Source: Bdellovibrionales bacterium
GTDB taxonomy: Bacteria > Bdellovibrionota > Bdellovibrionia > Bdellovibrionales > DASUEL01
Direction of reading: 5' to 3'
NCBI GenBank assembly: GCA_050250255.1
Contig: JBFWOZ010000006.1
Span: 30,887 to 94,886, forward strand
DNA: 64,000 nucleotides
The position numbers and the translations under genes were made by a program. Below, piece after piece: positions 1-44,670 of this stretch. Below the pieces are notes generated by a model that made no database searches, was not told where the DNA came from, and saw only the letters and a list, made by a program, of their open reading frames with translations. Positions within the stretch are counted from its first letter, which is position 1; each line of letters begins with the position of its first letter.

Positions 1-2
1 AA

Positions 3-158
3 GGTACAGGAGTGATTAAGTGGGTTCGTAGACAAGCTATAAACAATCTTCCTGCAGGTTACGGCATTCAATTTGACACATTAGACGATGAGAGTCGTAA
101 GCGGACCATTGAGGTTATCAATAGTTTAAAAACAAAATCGTTTATTCCTAAGTCCTAG
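3..158 (+). CDS. 3' end of a PilZ-like domain protein (partial, starts before window)
   Basis: Frame from nt 3 reads GTGVIKWVRRQAINNLPAGYGIQFDTLDDESRKRTIEVINSLKTKSFIPKS*. The G-x-[VI]-x-W-V-R...G-x-G-I-x-F pattern is typical of PilZ C-terminal strands. Confidence 0.55.
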   Translation, partial: GTGVIKWVRRQAINNLPAGYGIQFDTLDDESRKRTIEVINSLKTKSFIPKS

Positions 159-221
159 CAGCATAAGAAAAAAGTCGTTGGTTAAGACCTTATCCTCAAA
201 AAATGTTGTAAATCTAGTTGG

Positions 222-938
222 TCAGTCCCCTTCACTGCCACCGCGTCTTTGCTTTGAATCTTGGATTTCGCGAACAACAGCCCAGTCATTGATTTGGTAA
301 ACTAAGACGTCGATCTTTAGATTCAAATGCTGGTTACCAAGGGCGGAACGCAACGCTTGCGTTCTTCCGTTACCGTCGAAGACATAATAGGTACCGTCTG
401 GAGCTTTGGCCGCTCGTATAACCAATGACTCCGATGGTATAATGGACTTGCGAAGCTGGGCATCGACAGCTCCGGCATTCAAAATCTCGGGAAGACGCTT
501 TTTAATTTCATCAATTCGGGTCTGCAGCCTCTGCAAATCGTAGGGTGTCGAAACCTTGTGTGTCGTTGAAAGCTGTCTCAAAGGGACCATATCAGAATAG
601 ATCCTAGTCGCCTGCTGTTCAATCAGGTTTGTCAAATGGGTCGCTTCGATGAGCTCGCGACCAATCTCTTGCCATTTTTCAGGAAACCGTTCGAGCGATT
701 TGAGAAGTTTCTTGATAATATTTTGAGACACCCCCTCAAGCGCGAGCGCCTTAATGCCTTGGGATAACTCTGAATGGACGGTGTTTTCAACGAAATCATG
801 TCGGCTTGTCGGAGCTAGCACTTGGGCGCAATTGATCTTTGGGGCTGATACCGTAACATGCACAGCTGCCAATTTTGGGCTGCCAACTAACGGCAGTATT
901 GCCAGCACAGATAATGCAAGTAAGTTCACAGGTTTCAC
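222..938 (-). CDS. Signal-peptide protein with C-terminal ParB/Sulfiredoxin-like domain
   Basis: Hydrophobic N-terminus (MKPVNLLALSVLAILPL). GTYYVFDGNGRTQAL resembles the ParB/Srx Y-x-[IV]-x-D-G-x-x-R motif. Confidence 0.6.
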   Translation of the reverse strand: MKPVNLLALSVLAILPLVGSPKLAAVHVTVSAPKINCAQVLAPTSRHDFVENTVHSELSQGIKALALEGVSQNIIKKLLKSLERFPEKWQEIGRELIEATHLTNLIEQQATRIYSDMVPLRQLSTTHKVSTPYDLQRLQTRIDEIKKRLPEILNAGAVDAQLRKSIIPSESLVIRAAKAPDGTYYVFDGNGRTQALRSALGNQHLNLKIDVLVYQINDWAVVREIQDSKQRRGGSEGD

Positions 939-950
939 GCTAGTAAGTGA

Positions 951-966
951 TGCAATCTTGGTACCT
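951..966 (-). promoter_or_regulatory. sigma54 -24/-12 promoter for 222..938
   Basis: Minus strand AGGTAC-CAAGA-TTGCA (GG-N10-GC). GTG start lies 13 nt after the GC, with no SD. Confidence 0.7.
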
Positions 967-1011
967 GCTACATTCCGTCGAATTGACTCGCAGGTACCAC
1001 TCTCTGACTCT

Positions 1012-3027
1012 CTATTGATTTATGCCGAACCAAATTGTTTCGAACGGAGGTAGCTCCAACTTAATTTTTCCGTTGGCGGAGGTGATGTTGAAATTCCGAT
1101 CATACAGTAGATCAACGAGTTGTCGCGAACCCAAGTTAATATCAACAGTTGCTGTAACCGTATGTTCGCTTAAGTTGTGTAAAATGAGGGTTGTTTCTCC
1201 TGGAACGTGTCGAGCATATGCTAAAGTGCTTGGATTACTTGTGTTTAAAATTTCGATTTCTCCACGTCGAAGCGAAGCACGCTCTTTTCGCACACGAATA
1301 AAATGACGAACATATTCTAAAACCGAACCTTCTGGTGTTGAGCCTCTCGAAAAAATTGCGTTGTCATACAGAGCCTTTTCGACAGGTCCGCGGCCCTCAT
1401 CACGAGCATCATATTGCCCCCCACGCTCACGCGCAGCCTGTATTGCGTAGGGTTTATTATTTGTGGCCATGACTTCATCACCGTAGTAGATGATGGGCAT
1501 CCCCTTAAGGCTGAGCAGATATGAAAAAGCAAGGGTTATACGACGAGGGTCATGCGAAAGAAAATCCGTCATTCTCCCGCCCACTCCCAAATCACCTCGA
1601 AAAGACACTCCTTTTCCAGTACTCAGCAGTGCTCTTTGAATGATTTCACGAACGCGAGGTGGGGCCATTTCAAGCGTTAGCTCATCATGCAACCTTAGAA
1701 AATTAGCCCACACTGTTCCTTTTGGTAGCTCTGGCGTATTCTTCAGAGATTCGATGATGTAGCGTTTGTCTCCCGAAAGCAAACTCGCCCAAGAGTGGGC
1801 CATGAGATCGAAGTTGTATGCCATTTGAGCACCAGATGAAGCAGTTAGTGTTCTTCCGAGACTCTTTATGTAGATATTCTGTGATTTTCCAAAAAACTTT
1901 TGAACCACCGAAAGCTCCTGACAAGCTTCGACAATGATTGAAGTTCTAGGCGCCACTTGAGTGAGCAGATAACGAAGAGATTTCACAAACTCCAATGTTC
2001 TCGGATCACTTTCTCTCTCTTTAAACAAAAAAGGAATAGCATCAAGGCGAATGACATCGGCGCCCTGATTGGCCCAATGGGTGACTATTCGAAATGCCTC
2101 GCCCATAACAGCGGGATTTTTAAAATTCAAATCAAATTGAAAAGGGTAAAACGTGTGATAAATCCAAACGTCTTTTCCATCTGCATCCTTCGTTTTAAAG
2201 TAGTGAGGATGGTGTGGGTCGGCGAAATCAGGAAAGATCACTCGTCGTTCAACTTCTACAGTTTTACCGTATTCGTTTTTTTCGCGATAACGCGCGCTTA
2301 GAGGCTTTCCGTTTTTATCTAGTTTCACATCAAGCACTTCAGGGGGTGTTTTAAGAAAATGAAAATAATTACGATATTGTTTCTCCCCGCGAAGTGCGGC
2401 CTTAGCCCAAGCGTGAGTCTCTGAGACGTGATTCAGTACCAAATCCAGTTGAAAGCTTCCTCTTTTTTGTCTGAGTTTACTAATAAATGATCTGAATTCC
2501 CGGTCTCCCCCGAATCTTCTATCAACAGTTTTATAATCAGAAACGTCAAAGCCAGCGTCCTTAAACGGCGACTTGAGAAATGGAAGTGCGTAGATCATCG
2601 AAACTCCGAGATAGTCAAAAAGATAATCGGCCATGGCCGTTAGATTCCGGAAGGTGCCCTTTCCTTTCGAAGTTCCGATACCACTCACATAACCCATGTA
2701 TTGAATTTGATCTAAGAGTCTGTTTGGATCTTCAATAGCCTTGATATCCTCGGCTCTTAATTCTTTTGAGCGACTCGCCAAACCCTCCTGTACGGCCCTC
2801 TCGAATCTTTCAGACACACCGACGACAATGTTTCTATCAGAATAAATATTTTCAAAAATTCTAAGTGCATGCGGATCAACTTGAACCGATCTCTGTGGAG
2901 AAAGTACTTTATGACAGCCCCCACCGGCGGCGTATGTTGGCTGTGCCTTGACGGCAGCAAAAGCTAACTGCATCACCAGATGAAGTAGAACAATCGGTGT
3001 GATCACTCGAAATGGGAGTTGTCGCAT
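1012..3027 (-). CDS. treS: GH13 trehalose synthase (TreS)-like glucosyltransferase with N-terminal signal peptide
   Basis: DAGFDVSDY, DLVLNHVS, RLDAIPFL (nucleophile), IVEACQ (acid/base), FLRLHDELTLE (TreS-type signature), YYGDEV. Hydrophobic N-terminus ending AFA. Confidence 0.75.
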   Translation of the reverse strand: MRQLPFRVITPIVLLHLVMQLAFAAVKAQPTYAAGGGCHKVLSPQRSVQVDPHALRIFENIYSDRNIVVGVSERFERAVQEGLASRSKELRAEDIKAIEDPNRLLDQIQYMGYVSGIGTSKGKGTFRNLTAMADYLFDYLGVSMIYALPFLKSPFKDAGFDVSDYKTVDRRFGGDREFRSFISKLRQKRGSFQLDLVLNHVSETHAWAKAALRGEKQYRNYFHFLKTPPEVLDVKLDKNGKPLSARYREKNEYGKTVEVERRVIFPDFADPHHPHYFKTKDADGKDVWIYHTFYPFQFDLNFKNPAVMGEAFRIVTHWANQGADVIRLDAIPFLFKERESDPRTLEFVKSLRYLLTQVAPRTSIIVEACQELSVVQKFFGKSQNIYIKSLGRTLTASSGAQMAYNFDLMAHSWASLLSGDKRYIIESLKNTPELPKGTVWANFLRLHDELTLEMAPPRVREIIQRALLSTGKGVSFRGDLGVGGRMTDFLSHDPRRITLAFSYLLSLKGMPIIYYGDEVMATNNKPYAIQAARERGGQYDARDEGRGPVEKALYDNAIFSRGSTPEGSVLEYVRHFIRVRKERASLRRGEIEILNTSNPSTLAYARHVPGETTLILHNLSEHTVTATVDINLGSRQLVDLLYDRNFNITSANGKIKLELPPFETIWFGINQ

Positions 3028-3039
3028 ATTAAGAAACCG

Positions 3040-3055
3040 AGCAACTCAAGTGCCA
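3040..3055 (-). promoter_or_regulatory. sigma54 promoter for treS-like gene
   Basis: Minus strand TGGCAC-TTGAG-TTGCT (consensus). ATG 13 nt after the GC, no SD. Confidence 0.85.
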
Positions 3056-3194: not shown

Positions 3195-4031
3195 TTAGAC
3201 CTCTTTATTGCGCTCCACGACCCACAACCGAGAAATAACGCCCTTGATTTCTCCCAATTTCACCAAAAGATTTTTATTTAAAAATTCACGTGCCGCTCGG
3301 TCTGAAACGACTCCTACGGCCATACCGTCAAACAAAAATGATAAAAGAAGGCTGATGTCATCAATTTCTCCTATCACGTTGGGCTCAATGTGATGGTTTG
3401 CAAAGAATCTTTCCACCTGAAAACGGAGCATATTACTTTCGCTGAAAGTGAAAAATGGTACGTCGTTAAGCGATTTTGGAAAATTGTTTTTTAGACTACG
3501 AAACCTGGGGGCACCGACAAAAAAGAGTTTTCTCTGTGCCACCTCTTTCACGTTCCAATTTTTCTTATGCTTTGGCTCAGTGTCGACAATCATTAAATCT
3601 AAACGCTTGTGCTCTAGCTGTTCATGGAGGTCTTGATAGGTTCCATGCCACACTTGCAATATCAGATTTTTACGACATATCGGTTTCAAAATATCATGTA
3701 GAAGTGCCTTTGATACTGAGGGGACATAGCCCGCTCTGAAAAAATCTGCAGGTTTCGACTGGGGTTTTAGCGAGAAAAGAGCTTCTTGGGTAAGGGAGAA
3801 AATTTTATGAGTATATTCCAGCAAACTTTGGCCAGACGAACTGAGACGAAGCTTACGAAACTGACGATCGAAGAGCTTTATATTGAGACTTTCCTCTAAA
3901 AGCTTGATGCGAATACTAATCGCTGGCTGAGTGAGATTTAGTTTTTTTGCAGCCAATTTAATGGAGCCCTCTGTCGCAACAACATGGAAGTAGAAAAGAT
4001 GCTGTAGGTTACCTGATGGAAAAGTTATCAC
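3195..4031 (-). CDS. LysR-family transcriptional regulator (NhaR-like)
   Basis: N-terminal HTH NLQHLFYFHVVATEGSIKLAAKKLNLTQPAISIRIKLLEESL. C-terminal PNVIGEIDDISLL. Lies near a putative Na+/H+ antiporter. Confidence 0.9.
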   Translation of the reverse strand: MITFPSGNLQHLFYFHVVATEGSIKLAAKKLNLTQPAISIRIKLLEESLNIKLFDRQFRKLRLSSSGQSLLEYTHKIFSLTQEALFSLKPQSKPADFFRAGYVPSVSKALLHDILKPICRKNLILQVWHGTYQDLHEQLEHKRLDLMIVDTEPKHKKNWNVKEVAQRKLFFVGAPRFRSLKNNFPKSLNDVPFFTFSESNMLRFQVERFFANHHIEPNVIGEIDDISLLLSFLFDGMAVGVVSDRAAREFLNKNLLVKLGEIKGVISRLWVVERNKEV

Positions 4032-18988: not shown

Positions 18989-19004
18989 AGCAAGAGCGAT
19001 GCCG
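18989..19004 (-). promoter_or_regulatory. sigma54 promoter
   Basis: Minus strand CGGCAT-CGCTC-TTGCT. Confidence 0.75.
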
Positions 19005-41972: not shown

Positions 41973-43796
41973 ATGAATTCCTTTGAGGTTGCAGCTGATC
42001 CCCAGAGACAAAATCACTTCAAAACGCTTCAGAAACTGATCCACTATCTCTGGCCCCGGAGCCATAGTGGCCTAAAGATTCGCGTCATCGTAGCCATGTG
42101 CTGCCTGGTGGTTGCAAAAGTTCTGAATGTCTATGTTCCTTTCTTATTAAAAGATTTGGTGGACGTTCTTAATATTCGTACTACCGAAGTCGTCACACTC
42201 CCACTCGCTTTGATTGTCGCCTACGCCGTAGCGCGCGTCGGCTCTCAAGCCTTTGGCGAAATCCGTGATCTTCTCTTTGTTCATGTGTCACAGCACGCTC
42301 AACGAACGGTCGCGGGACACACTTTTTCTCACCTTCATGCGCTCTCTCTGAGGTTTCACTTAGATCGTCAGACCGGCGGGCTCTCGCGTGTGATTGAGCG
42401 TGGAACAAAAGCGATTCAATTTGTTTTAGGCCTCATGCTCTTTAATATTCTGCCGACTTTTTTAGAAATCTTTCTTGTCACCGGCGCCCTCTATTTAAAA
42501 TTTGGATGGGAATATTCGGCCGTGATTTTTGTCACTATTGCCTCTTACATTTTTCATACTTACTTTGTGACCGAGTGGCGACTGAAACATCGAACCGTCA
42601 TGAATAAACGCGACACCGAGGCCAATACTAAAGCGGTGGACAGTTTGCTCAACTACGAAACCGTAAAGTATTTTGGAAACGAAAAACACGAAATGAACCG
42701 TTACGATCACGCTCTTTCGTCTTACGAGCAAGCGGCCATTAAAAATCAATACACCCTTTCGACTCTTAATATTGGTCAAGGGCTCATCATTGGATTTGGA
42801 CTGGCAACGCTTCTCCTCCTCGCCTCAAGAGGCGTGCAAAGTGGAGTGCTGAGCATTGGTGATTTTGTACTTCTCAATACTTTTCTTTTACAGCTCTATA
42901 TGCCACTCAACCTTTTGGGCTTTGTCTACCGAGAAACAAAACAAGGTCTCGTCGATATGGATAAGATGTTTGAGCTTTTGGCCGTCAATCAAGAGATAAA
43001 AGATTCTCCAGACGCAAAGGCTCTCAAGGATCAGGCCCGTGACATTCAATATACTGTTGAGTTTAAAAATGTTTCTTTCTCCTACGAGCCTGACCGAAAA
43101 ATACTGAAAGATCTTAGCTTTCAAATTCCGCATGGAAAAACGGTCGCTGTCGTGGGCCCGAGTGGGGCGGGAAAGAGCACTCTCTCCCGACTCCTCTTCC
43201 GATTCTATGACGTCACTTCCGGTGCGATTCTTATTGACGGTGTGGATCTACGGAATATCAAACAGCTCGATCTACGTCATCATATTGGAATCGTTCCCCA
43301 AGACACGGTGCTGTTTAACGACACCATTCACTACAATATTCAGTATGGAAACATCCTCGCCTCTGAACAGGAAGTGATCGAGGCCGCTCGAAAATCGCAA
43401 ATACATAGTTTTGTGATGGGGCTTCCTAAAAAATATGAAACCGCGGTTGGAGAACGCGGCTTAAAACTTTCTGGTGGAGAAAAGCAACGTGTGGCCATTG
43501 CCCGTACGATTTTAAAAGACCCGCCGATTCTTATTTTTGATGAAGCGACGAGTGCTCTAGATTCTAAAACGGAAAAAGAAATTCAAGCTTCGCTCAAAGC
43601 CATTGCCCGTAACCGTACCACTCTCGTGATTGCCCATAGACTTTCCACCATTGTCGATGCCGATGAAATTTTGGTTTTAAAGGATGGGGAGATTGTGGAA
43701 CGTGGAACCCATGCAGAACATTTAAAAAGAGATGGGGAATACGCCTCGATGTGGAGAAGGCAGGCTTCTCAAAAGGACGAATCCCCTACTGCTTAG
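41973..43796 (+). CDS. ABC exporter, Atm1/HMT1 type (fused TMD-NBD)
   Basis: FHLDRQTGGLSRVIERG, DSLLNYETVKYF, GPSGAGKS, LSGGEKQR, DEATSALD. Confidence 0.94.
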   Translation: MNSFEVAADPQRQNHFKTLQKLIHYLWPRSHSGLKIRVIVAMCCLVVAKVLNVYVPFLLKDLVDVLNIRTTEVVTLPLALIVAYAVARVGSQAFGEIRDLLFVHVSQHAQRTVAGHTFSHLHALSLRFHLDRQTGGLSRVIERGTKAIQFVLGLMLFNILPTFLEIFLVTGALYLKFGWEYSAVIFVTIASYIFHTYFVTEWRLKHRTVMNKRDTEANTKAVDSLLNYETVKYFGNEKHEMNRYDHALSSYEQAAIKNQYTLSTLNIGQGLIIGFGLATLLLLASRGVQSGVLSIGDFVLLNTFLLQLYMPLNLLGFVYRETKQGLVDMDKMFELLAVNQEIKDSPDAKALKDQARDIQYTVEFKNVSFSYEPDRKILKDLSFQIPHGKTVAVVGPSGAGKSTLSRLLFRFYDVTSGAILIDGVDLRNIKQLDLRHHIGIVPQDTVLFNDTIHYNIQYGNILASEQEVIEAARKSQIHSFVMGLPKKYETAVGERGLKLSGGEKQRVAIARTILKDPPILIFDEATSALDSKTEKEIQASLKAIARNRTTLVIAHRLSTIVDADEILVLKDGEIVERGTHAEHLKRDGEYASMWRRQASQKDESPTA

Positions 43797-44473
43797 AGTT
43801 GAATCCATTTTTGGTGAAGTTCTTGCCGTTTTCCTTTTTCGAACTTCACAGCTGGGCCAATGAGCTTGGCCCGTTGATTGACTATCACGAGGCCCGCACC
43901 ATCGTCGCAACCAATAATAGGCGAACGGGTCTGTTTGGAGTACTGAATCAGCTCTTGGTCGTGGCTTCCACGCCAATCATAGTGCGGAGAAAACTCGAAA
44001 CCGACAAGGCTCATGGCTTTATAGTCTGTCAGACAGTGTTTGTTTTCATCACGATCAGCACTTGGAACTTGGGCCGTCATAATATTAGGAGTCATCACGA
44101 TCGCGCCGGCACTCATGCCCGCAAGAACCCCGCCTTTTTTCACGAATTTTTTAAACTGTGGGATGAGTTTGTTTTTTCTTAAATGATTTAAAAATATAAA
44201 AGTGTTCCCGCTCGAAAGATAAATCACATCCCCAGAAAAGACTTTTTCGAGATGTTTTGGAGAATAGTCTCTATTGGGTGCAAAGTAGTTGAAGTTTTTC
44301 ACTCCATATTTTTTGTAATAGCGTTTCCAATCACGATAATGATCGGGATGTTCATAGAACGTAAAAGGAACGTAGCTCATGACGGGCTCTTTCTTTTTGA
44401 TAAGGCCCAGGAGCTCAAGGTCTAAAGCTTCATTTATCTTATTATTGCCGCCGCTATATAAAATAAGTTTCAT
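43793..44473 (-). CDS. Peptidase S51 (peptidase E-like)
   Basis: IYLSSGNTF, GMSAGA, FSPHY. Start probably MKLILYSGG. Confidence 0.88.
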   Translation of the reverse strand: MKLILYSGGNNKINEALDLELLGLIKKKEPVMSYVPFTFYEHPDHYRDWKRYYKKYGVKNFNYFAPNRDYSPKHLEKVFSGDVIYLSSGNTFIFLNHLRKNKLIPQFKKFVKKGGVLAGMSAGAIVMTPNIMTAQVPSADRDENKHCLTDYKAMSLVGFEFSPHYDWRGSHDQELIQYSKQTRSPIIGCDDGAGLVIVNQRAKLIGPAVKFEKGKRQELHQKWIQL

Positions 44474-44670
44474 ACGACTAGATAGAGCAATCTCCATACC
44501 CTGTCTCATTCAGAGACGGACTTAAAAAGTACTTAGAAAGTGTGTGGTTAGCTGGCCTCACCATGAAACATCTTAAAACGGGACAGCTAAGGTTTTGACT
44601 GTGAGAGTGGTGACTGACACCTTGGGCAGAAGAACAAAACGTCTCAAGTTGAAACGTTTCCGTGAAAGCG

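Follow-up and report, generated by a model that had tools for sequence, protein, structure and literature searches.

We analyzed a 64,000-nucleotide (nt) stretch of DNA, hereafter the window, from a Bdellovibrionales bacterium (GenBank assembly GCA_050250255.1, contig JBFWOZ010000006.1, positions 30,887 to 94,886). Near its beginning, two adjacent genes on the minus strand encode an enzyme of the GH13 family (gene B) and a small protein with a predicted ParB/sulfiredoxin (Srx) fold (gene A). The two genes are separated by a spacer of 73 nt, both products carry a predicted signal peptide followed by a similar cysteine motif, and each gene is preceded at the same distance by a sigma-54-type site. 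The features of the pair are as follows.

1012 to 3027, minus strand: gene B, encoding the GH13 enzyme (671 aa), called as an open reading frame (ORF) and by Pfam.
222 to 938, minus strand: gene A, encoding the small protein (238 aa, GTG start), called as an ORF.
2956 to 3027, minus strand: predicted Sec signal peptide of the GH13 enzyme (residues 1 to 24), with probable cleavage between AFA and A.
864 to 938, minus strand: predicted Sec signal peptide of the small protein (residues 1 to 25), with probable cleavage between LAA and V.
2896 to 2916, minus strand: Cys motif CHKVLSP of the GH13 enzyme (residues 38 to 44).
810 to 830, minus strand: Cys motif CAQVLAP of the small protein (residues 37 to 43).
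3055 to 3040, minus strand: sigma-54-type site TGGCACttgagTTGCT, followed by 12 nt and the ATG of the GH13 gene.
966 to 951, minus strand: weaker sigma-54-type site aGGTACcaagaTTGCA, followed by 12 nt and the GTG of the small gene.

The GH13 enzyme matches the Pfam Alpha-amylase family (PF00128) with an E value of 6.7e-35 and ends in a Malt_amylase_C tail. It contains conserved regions I to IV with the catalytic Asp, Glu and Asp that define GH13, as do TreS (trehalose synthase; 5x7u, 4tvu) and amylosucrase (1g5a, 3ucq), and in an alignment of 40 sequences the catalytic residues Asp329, Glu367 and Asp448 are invariant together with Asp195, Asn199, His200, Arg327 and His447. The C-terminal half has its closest PDB match in the trehalose synthase 5x7u (5e-60), and residues 52 to 452, which include the N-terminal helical domain, align in the PDB to amylosucrases, as does the A/B region. 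Against TIGR02456 (treS_nterm), the best NCBIfam model, the protein scores 273 bits, below the cut-off of 678 at which it would count as a TreS equivalog. Its sequence places the enzyme between trehalose synthase and amylosucrase, with a predicted activity on α-glucans or disaccharides. Unlike TreS and amylosucrase, it has a predicted signal peptide, as do most members of its 670-aa family. A signal-like N terminus is seen in 108 of 120 homologues, so this GH13 family appears to be exported as a rule rather than cytoplasmic.

The small protein has no Pfam or NCBIfam match and a single relative in a word-indexed search of 5.8 billion proteins. An exhaustive HMMER search returned 41 hits, with E values of 1e-10 or below for 5, and 37 of the 41 were aligned; a 1375-aa fusion (P0127) and the repeat or low-complexity proteins P0136, P0145, P0154 and P0162 were excluded. 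Among 30 hits scanned against Pfam and NCBIfam, 25 have no match of any kind and none matches ParB_N (PF02195). With the 37-sequence alignment, the AlphaFold2 model of the small protein reaches a predicted local distance difference test score (pLDDT) of 88.1, as compared with 41.8 from 2 sequences, although residues 1 to 49 are modeled with low confidence. The named top hits of a Foldseek search of the PDB all belong to the ParB/Srx superfamily (human Srx, ParB-CTP, Noc, SbnI, KorB and PadC), with probabilities of 0.9 to 1.0, weak E values (best 2.9e-3, at probability 1.00) and query-normalized template-modeling scores of 0.25 to 0.3, which are low because only the C-terminal half of the protein is covered. 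Leads from the ESM Atlas, taken as leads only, agree with this fold, and the family profile matches a single protein among PDB sequences, the serine kinase SbnI, in an alignment (E 1.1) that covers the ...PIRV..G.YVVFDGNGR motif. His127, Arg141, Ser169, Gly189 and Arg192 are invariant in the family alignment. The model thus points to a ParB/Srx fold in a family that has no name.

The small protein shares this fold with the structurally characterized members of the superfamily (Srx, 1xw3; ParB-CTP, 7bnr and 6sdk; SbnI, 5uje and 6nr6), and its ...IRV...G.YVVFDGNGR..A segment sits where the DGxxR nucleotide-binding loop lies in those proteins. It differs from them in lacking a ParB_N match, in having an extra helical N-terminal domain and in being predicted to be exported, to where nucleoside triphosphates are scarce. 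A further difference is the company that the family keeps. Outside this genome, a secreted Exo_endo_phos (EEP) phosphoesterase of about 260 aa nearly always adjoins the small-family gene (loci L016, L018, L019, L020 to L022 and L024, in genomes G357, G267, G288, G048, G175, G119 and G400), which suggests that the two form a two-enzyme extracellular module; the EEP partner has only a weak match in the genome studied here. The small family also occurs as fusions of 435 to 1381 aa and as lipoprotein forms.

Signal peptides were called by inspection, with a hydrophobicity heuristic and by comparison with homologues. Both N termini, MRQLPFRVITPIVLLHLVMQLAFA/AVKAQPTYAAGGGCHKVLSP in the GH13 enzyme and MKPVNLLALSVLAILPLVGSPKLAA/VHVTVSAPKINCAQVLAP in the small protein (the slash marks the probable cleavage site), have Lys or Arg in the n-region, an uncharged h-region of 13 to 17 residues and an A-x-A-like site, followed at some distance by the motif Cys, residue 38 in the former and 37 in the latter. 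The small protein has a Leu at position -3, where the signal of signal peptidase I (SPase I) is expected to have a small residue. Within the small family, 23 of the 37 aligned members are signal-like and the other 14 look cytoplasmic. The original prediction, which was made from the DNA alone, had described signal-type leaders on both proteins, a Cys motif at residue 37 or 38, a ParB/Srx-like fold and a TreS-like enzyme. The leaders, the two Cys positions and the fold are all borne out, and the likeness to TreS holds for the C-terminal half of an enzyme that nonetheless falls below the equivalog cut-off; the accompanying premise that such an enzyme is normally cytoplasmic is contradicted by the signal-like N termini of its own family.

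The Cys motif follows the signal peptide well beyond these two proteins. In the signal-bearing members of the small family, a Cys lies within 25 residues of the hydrophobic core in 22 of 23, usually 3 to 6 residues past the A-x-A site, and in 19 of the signal-bearing members it is the only Cys after that core, just as Cys37 is the only Cys of our small protein. Among the 14 signal-less members, only one has any Cys within its first 60 residues. The residues after the Cys follow a Cys-x-x-hydrophobic-hydrophobic pattern, with CTDLF, CLDLL, CHFLF, CQGIF and PEKINCASVVAPP among the examples. The long forms of the family (L026, with SVYSCPWLLG, as well as L025 and P0127) keep the motif at the far N terminus, 400 to 1200 residues away from the ParB/Srx domain, and in the lipoprotein forms the motif Cys comes after a genuine lipobox Cys (…FTSC…ELSCKEVS). 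In the close clade of the GH13 enzyme, six of eight members have an N-terminal Cys (CRDLL, CEAGLL, CRDLF, CLDLF, CGDLF and the CHKVLSP of our protein). Three of those proteins lack Cys369, which implies that the N-terminal Cys of the GH13 enzyme is unpaired and takes no part in an internal disulfide. A further GH13 orthologue, in G232, reads AGDCIAPLL, and the signal-less forms in G310 and G387 are without the motif. The third family is represented in our genome by a 385-aa protein with NDLCQNVLGG, whose orthologue in G005 matches Pfam Exo_endo_phos and is therefore EEP-like; its signal-bearing orthologues carry CSKLF, CGGLF and CRYLF, the four signal-less ones carry no such motif, and one orthologue is a lipoprotein. 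The Cys-x-x-hydrophobic-hydrophobic motif accompanies the signal peptide in three unrelated families.

Which residues make up the motif depends on the genome rather than on the protein family. In our genome, the members of all three families (the GH13 enzyme, the small protein and the 385-aa protein) have Val-Leu at positions +3 and +4 from the Cys, whereas by a hand tally of about 38 tags in other genomes Val-Leu occurs in one (CEKVL, in G267) and Phe is the commonest residue at +4, mostly as Leu-Phe. A second matched adjacent pair lies in G005 (locus L118, contig C20), where an EEP enzyme (positions 3 to 1181, minus strand) with NLDCSKLFSAT has a divergent neighbor (1414 to 2520, plus strand) with GQICESLFTSAA, its tag being CESLFTS. 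The two are unrelated in sequence (BLASTP E 5.9) and the neighbor has no Pfam match; each protein combines a signal peptide with a single Cys. Among random pairs of signal-like proteins from our own genome, 0.24% share a 7-mer that starts with Cys and is identical at 4 or more of the 7 positions, and 0.044% do so with Cys positions that differ by no more than 3.

Two side observations concern tags of this kind. At L009 (contig C16 of the relative G012), a GH13-related protein of more than 1000 aa from another glycosidase family has a signal peptide followed by PLSCDGLMAPQAP, a tag of the same kind. Four signal-bearing proteins of G000 without a Pfam match (C51:3647-5437, C13:50288-51451, C28:6619-7683 and C51:1764-3638) have a lone N-terminal Cys in the form C-G-P-x-[LM] (CGPKL twice, CGPPL and CGPFM), and one of their genes follows a sigma-54 site that abuts its start; these proteins may represent a sub-flavor of the tag or a paralogue family.

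A genome-wide excess of the motif was first sought with a crude pattern, C..[VLI][LF], which occurs at 13 of 716 post-signal Cys residues (1.8%) and at 379 of 9504 across the proteome (4.0%), that is, without enrichment. The background is inflated by membrane proteins, so the test was restricted to 764 exported-like proteins without further transmembrane segments, with lipobox-like Cys residues excluded. In this set, Cys residues near the N terminus fit C..[VL]L in 11 of 279 cases, as compared with 16 of 1710 further in (odds ratio 4.35, one-sided Fisher p 5.5e-4), and they fit C..[LIV][FL] in 13 of 279, as compared with 31 of 1710 (p 0.005). Of 21 near matches, 13 motif-bearing proteins were kept by eye, and roughly 10 to 13 candidates are left (CSKVLQG, CQNVLGG, CSAALSP, CLSVMAP, CTYAL and others); for the 386-aa CSKVLQG protein of our genome, no homologue was found. 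Among 91 exported-like proteins with a single Cys, that Cys lies in the first 20 mature residues in 26, where 8.4 would be expected.

The motif is most likely, on the evidence of these sequences, a shared tag that acts after export and is read by something encoded in the same genome. It may act as a disulfide tether, as a routing signal or through a modification. Several results weigh against a shared tag. The motif is short and degenerate, it shows no excess in the crude tests (Leu at +4 of post-signal Cys residues likewise stays at background level, 27 of 222), about 5 of the 11 to 21 near matches lie in a hydrophobic or transmembrane context and are probably false, and some of the single-Cys cases are probably missed lipoproteins. 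The Prc protease, with CAQAL, was dropped as a tag bearer, as its orthologues show the Cys region to belong to the protease's own conserved N-domain. In addition, the relatives compared are not independent of one another, and the counts overstate significance.

These points would fit an explanation in which each family has a Cys motif of its own with a structural role (an N-cap, for example, or a homodimer disulfide), the motifs have no connection with one another, and the likeness within our pair reflects chance together with hydrophobic bias. TreS, amylosucrase and ParB/Srx proteins often oligomerize, and the motif of the small protein falls in the part of the AlphaFold2 model that has low confidence. 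What such an explanation leaves unaccounted for is the rule, common to three unrelated families, that the motif is present with a signal peptide and absent without one, the retention of the motif at the N terminus despite inserted domains, its genome-specific flavor, and the occurrence of a second matched pair in G005 when such a pair would arise by chance at 0.04 to 0.24%. We consider it unlikely.

The second shared property of the two genes is the layout of their upstream DNA. At both, a GG-N10-GC element is present with TTGC ending 13 nt before the start codon, and the site of the GH13 gene matches all 11 positions of the TGGCAC-N5-TTGCW consensus. No Shine-Dalgarno sequence (a GGAG-like word) is found in either 12-nt spacer, CGGTTTCTTAAT before the GH13 gene and TCACTTACTAGC before the small gene. 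An in-frame stop lies 6 codons before the ATG of the GH13 gene with no other start in between, and neither gene has an upstream in-frame start. With the C of the GC at -12, the start codon would fall at about +3, and the mRNAs would be leaderless or nearly so. Canonical enhancer-dependent sigma-54 promoters, such as glnAp2 and nifH, share with these sites the GG-N10-GC element within TGGCAC-N5-TTGCW, and the genome has the machinery to match, namely a single rpoN gene (Sigma54_DBD, 6e-65) and 13 Sigma54_activat matches at E < 1e-50, the signature of AAA+ activators. They differ in that here 12 to 13 nt separate TTGCW from the start codon, too few to accommodate a leader or a Shine-Dalgarno sequence. 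The consensus used is the -24/-12 promoter consensus of PMC5243855; for this and the other cited papers we draw on the parts available to us. In those parts, the leaderless mRNAs described from Deinococcus, Mycobacterium and rhizobia likewise have a promoter that abuts the ORF and no Shine-Dalgarno sequence, but they use -10 boxes of the sigma-70 type (PMC4007540, PMC3898074, PMC3616915, PMC4842269), whereas the promoters here are of the sigma-54 type and one of the two starts is a GTG.

The same layout recurs elsewhere in the window, the genome and the lineage. The pattern GGYAYN5TTGCW occurs at 8 sites in the window, all on the minus strand, as compared with 0.70 expected, and none of 100 shuffles reaches 8. 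One of these lies before a peptidase gene, as follows.

44486 to 44500, minus strand: third sigma-54-type site gGGTATggagaTTGCT, followed after 12 nt by the ATG of a gene for an S51 peptidase (43793 to 44473, minus strand).

The other five (at 18989, 30279, 41929, 52875 and 53493) precede leaders with a Shine-Dalgarno sequence or no clear gene. Across our own genome, a start codon lies 12 to 13 nt after the site in 9 of 58 gene-assigned sites; besides genes A and B, the genes concerned encode an SLT transglycosylase, a trypsin-like protease, the S51 peptidase, Ku, a Y1 transposase and three signal-bearing proteins of no known function. In 41 relatives, we counted TGGCACN5TTGCW followed by ATG at fixed gaps. 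A gap of 12 to 13 nt gives 32 matches, and an ORF of at least 80 codons is opened in 18 of the 30 examined, mostly with a signal peptide; a gap of 15 to 16 nt gives 16 matches, of which 10 open such an ORF, one of them being the second Met of a gap-13 gene. At a gap of 9 to 10 nt, used as a control, 2 of 17 matches open such an ORF and those two are mutual orthologues, from which it appears that starts too close to lie downstream of the transcription start are avoided. Across the order, start codons repeatedly fall 12 to 16 nt past the -12 element. Over all contigs of our genome, starts without a Shine-Dalgarno sequence also show a TANNAT peak at -12 (36 genes, as compared with about 5 to 15 at neighboring positions), which suggests that the genome has a sizeable set of leaderless genes of the sigma-70 type as well. 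In the parts of the literature available to us, we found no description of leaderless mRNAs driven by sigma-54, or of the Cys tag.

The Ku gene deserves separate mention as an observation outside the window. A TGGCATttgatTTGCT site stands 12 nt ahead of the start of this nonhomologous end joining gene (G000:C6:2524-3441), and sigma-54 may thus govern a DNA-repair gene through an equally leaderless arrangement.

A less favorable picture emerges for the small gene, whose site has GG and GC at the correct spacing but departs from the consensus with aGGtAC, and whose -24 element coincides with the 3' arm of an inverted repeat in the spacer between the two genes.

959 to 968 and 990 to 999, no strand assigned: perfect 10-bp inverted repeat with a 21-nt loop.

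The RNA of this repeat folds at -23.4 kcal/mol as compared with -16.3 for shuffles (z -2.5), and no U-tract follows it. The gene begins with GTG, and in E. coli leaderless mRNAs with this start are poorly translated (PMC3616915). No sigma-54 site precedes the orthologues of either gene in other genomes, and no shared repeat was found upstream of the two sites. These points would be consistent with sigma-54-like sites that are not working promoters, the small gene being co-transcribed with the GH13 gene across a spacer of only 73 nt, or both being served by upstream promoters, with the 12-nt spacing incidental; nor was an upstream activator site or a nearby activator gene found, the contig of the locus containing none of the genome's Sigma54_activat matches. 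We find this explanation doubtful in view of the perfect consensus at the GH13 gene, the identical spacing at both sites, the lack of a Shine-Dalgarno sequence at either gene, the enrichment of 12- to 16-nt starts in the lineage over the 9- to 10-nt control and the abundance of sites in the window.

The promoter layout and the Cys motif are not coupled to each other. Of 7 other tag-bearing candidates whose upstream DNA was read, none has a sigma-54 site and 4 have a recognizable Shine-Dalgarno sequence. The original prediction had placed a sigma-54 site 13 nt before each start and had proposed that the motif marks a co-regulated class tied to RpoN. Both sites are indeed present at that spacing, the second being weaker and overlapping a hairpin. 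As for the class, a tag that is linked to export in three families, takes a genome-specific form and is enriched near the N terminus of exported-like proteins gives the proposal partial support, whereas the co-regulation by sigma-54 is not supported, either in the other tag bearers or in the orthologues.

A lone conserved Cys soon after a Sec signal, present in exported forms only, recalls the lipoprotein signal (lipobox; Lgt/LspA/Lnt), and a further explanation is that the motif Cys is lipidated or otherwise covalently modified by a noncanonical pathway that anchors the enzymes to the membrane or surface. The hydrophobic residues next to the Cys would suit this, and more than 100 canonical lipobox proteins in the genome indicate that the Lgt/Lsp machinery exists. 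However, no family tag that was read fits the lipobox pattern [LVI][ASTVI][GAS]C. The Cys of our two proteins follows KIN and GGG, 12 to 14 residues past the A-x-A site; in the other tags, the residues at -3 to -1 are equally unlike a lipobox (APQ, KDP, SLE and others). Over all the tags, the Cys lies 3 to 14 residues beyond a site of the SPase I type, and the small-family lipoprotein forms carry a separate lipobox Cys alongside it. By sequence, a lipobox is excluded for the motif Cys, and modification by some other route appears improbable. Least probable of all is a private disulfide-linked heterodimer of the two enzymes with the motif as docking peptide, which would account for adjacent genes with near-identical motifs, a single free Cys in each tail and the same promoter type, but is opposed by the occurrence of the motif on other proteins, by the different conserved neighbor (the EEP enzyme) of the small family elsewhere, and by the lack of co-occurrence, the small family being present in 11 of the 401 genomes of the phylum and the GH13 clade in 4 of them, with this genome alone in common and with G035 having the GH13 enzyme and no small-family protein.

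Closer parallels may be found among short linear motifs that sit on exported proteins of many unrelated families and, in the known cases, decide their final location. The Bacteroidetes lipoprotein export signal is acidic and follows the lipidated Cys (PMC5080379), and MYXO-CTERM, the myxosortase substrate signal, is C-terminal, with a transmembrane helix and an invariant Cys (PMC11980579). As far as the available parts of these papers describe them, both differ from the motif reported here, which is N-terminal and has hydrophobic residues after the Cys.

The surroundings of the locus are as follows.

1 to 159, plus strand: 3' end of a convergent response-regulator/PilZ-like gene, in the downstream flank.
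3195 to 4031, minus strand: LysR-type regulator gene, immediately upstream of the GH13 promoter.

A search for related loci among genome contigs returned one distant ParB-like/PIG-L fusion in a metagenome-assembled genome of the Terriglobales, and one among metagenome contigs returned a short contig with an N-terminally short family member and unrelated neighbors; neither has a GH13 neighbor.

Taken as a whole, the locus would consist of adjacent exported GH13 and ParB/Srx enzymes that share a post-export C-x-x-V-L-x-P tag, each expressed as a near-leaderless mRNA from a promoter of the sigma-54 type, a reading that we regard as evenly balanced between right and wrong. In such a scheme, activator-dependent transcription would begin 0 to 3 nt before the start codon, and both mRNAs would be translated without a Shine-Dalgarno sequence. 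SPase I would then cleave both leaders, and the flexible tail left at each new N terminus would carry a free thiol, through which a common putative partner encoded in the same genome could tether the enzymes covalently, by a disulfide-type bond, or route them. A broader and more tentative proposal, which we offer as possible, is that C-x-x-hydrophobic-hydrophobic(-x-P) serves Bdellovibrio-like bacteria as a previously unrecognized N-terminal signal for sorting or tethering, carried by exported copies of otherwise cytoplasmic enzyme families (GH13, ParB/Srx and EEP nucleases) and read via its lone thiol by a co-evolving receptor encoded in the genome, with some such genes fired as leaderless sigma-54 messages.

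If the tag is real, it would allow the enzymes that predatory bacteria export, possibly toward prey, to be found directly from sequence, it would point to a sorting or tethering machine that has not been described, and it would account for the occurrence outside the cell of folds that normally need cytoplasmic cofactors. The promoter layout would add a further lineage to a seemingly undescribed class in which activator-dependent sigma-54 transcription is combined with leaderless translation free of a Shine-Dalgarno sequence, and it is relevant to the translation of tightly switched genes and to the annotation of start codons in these genomes.

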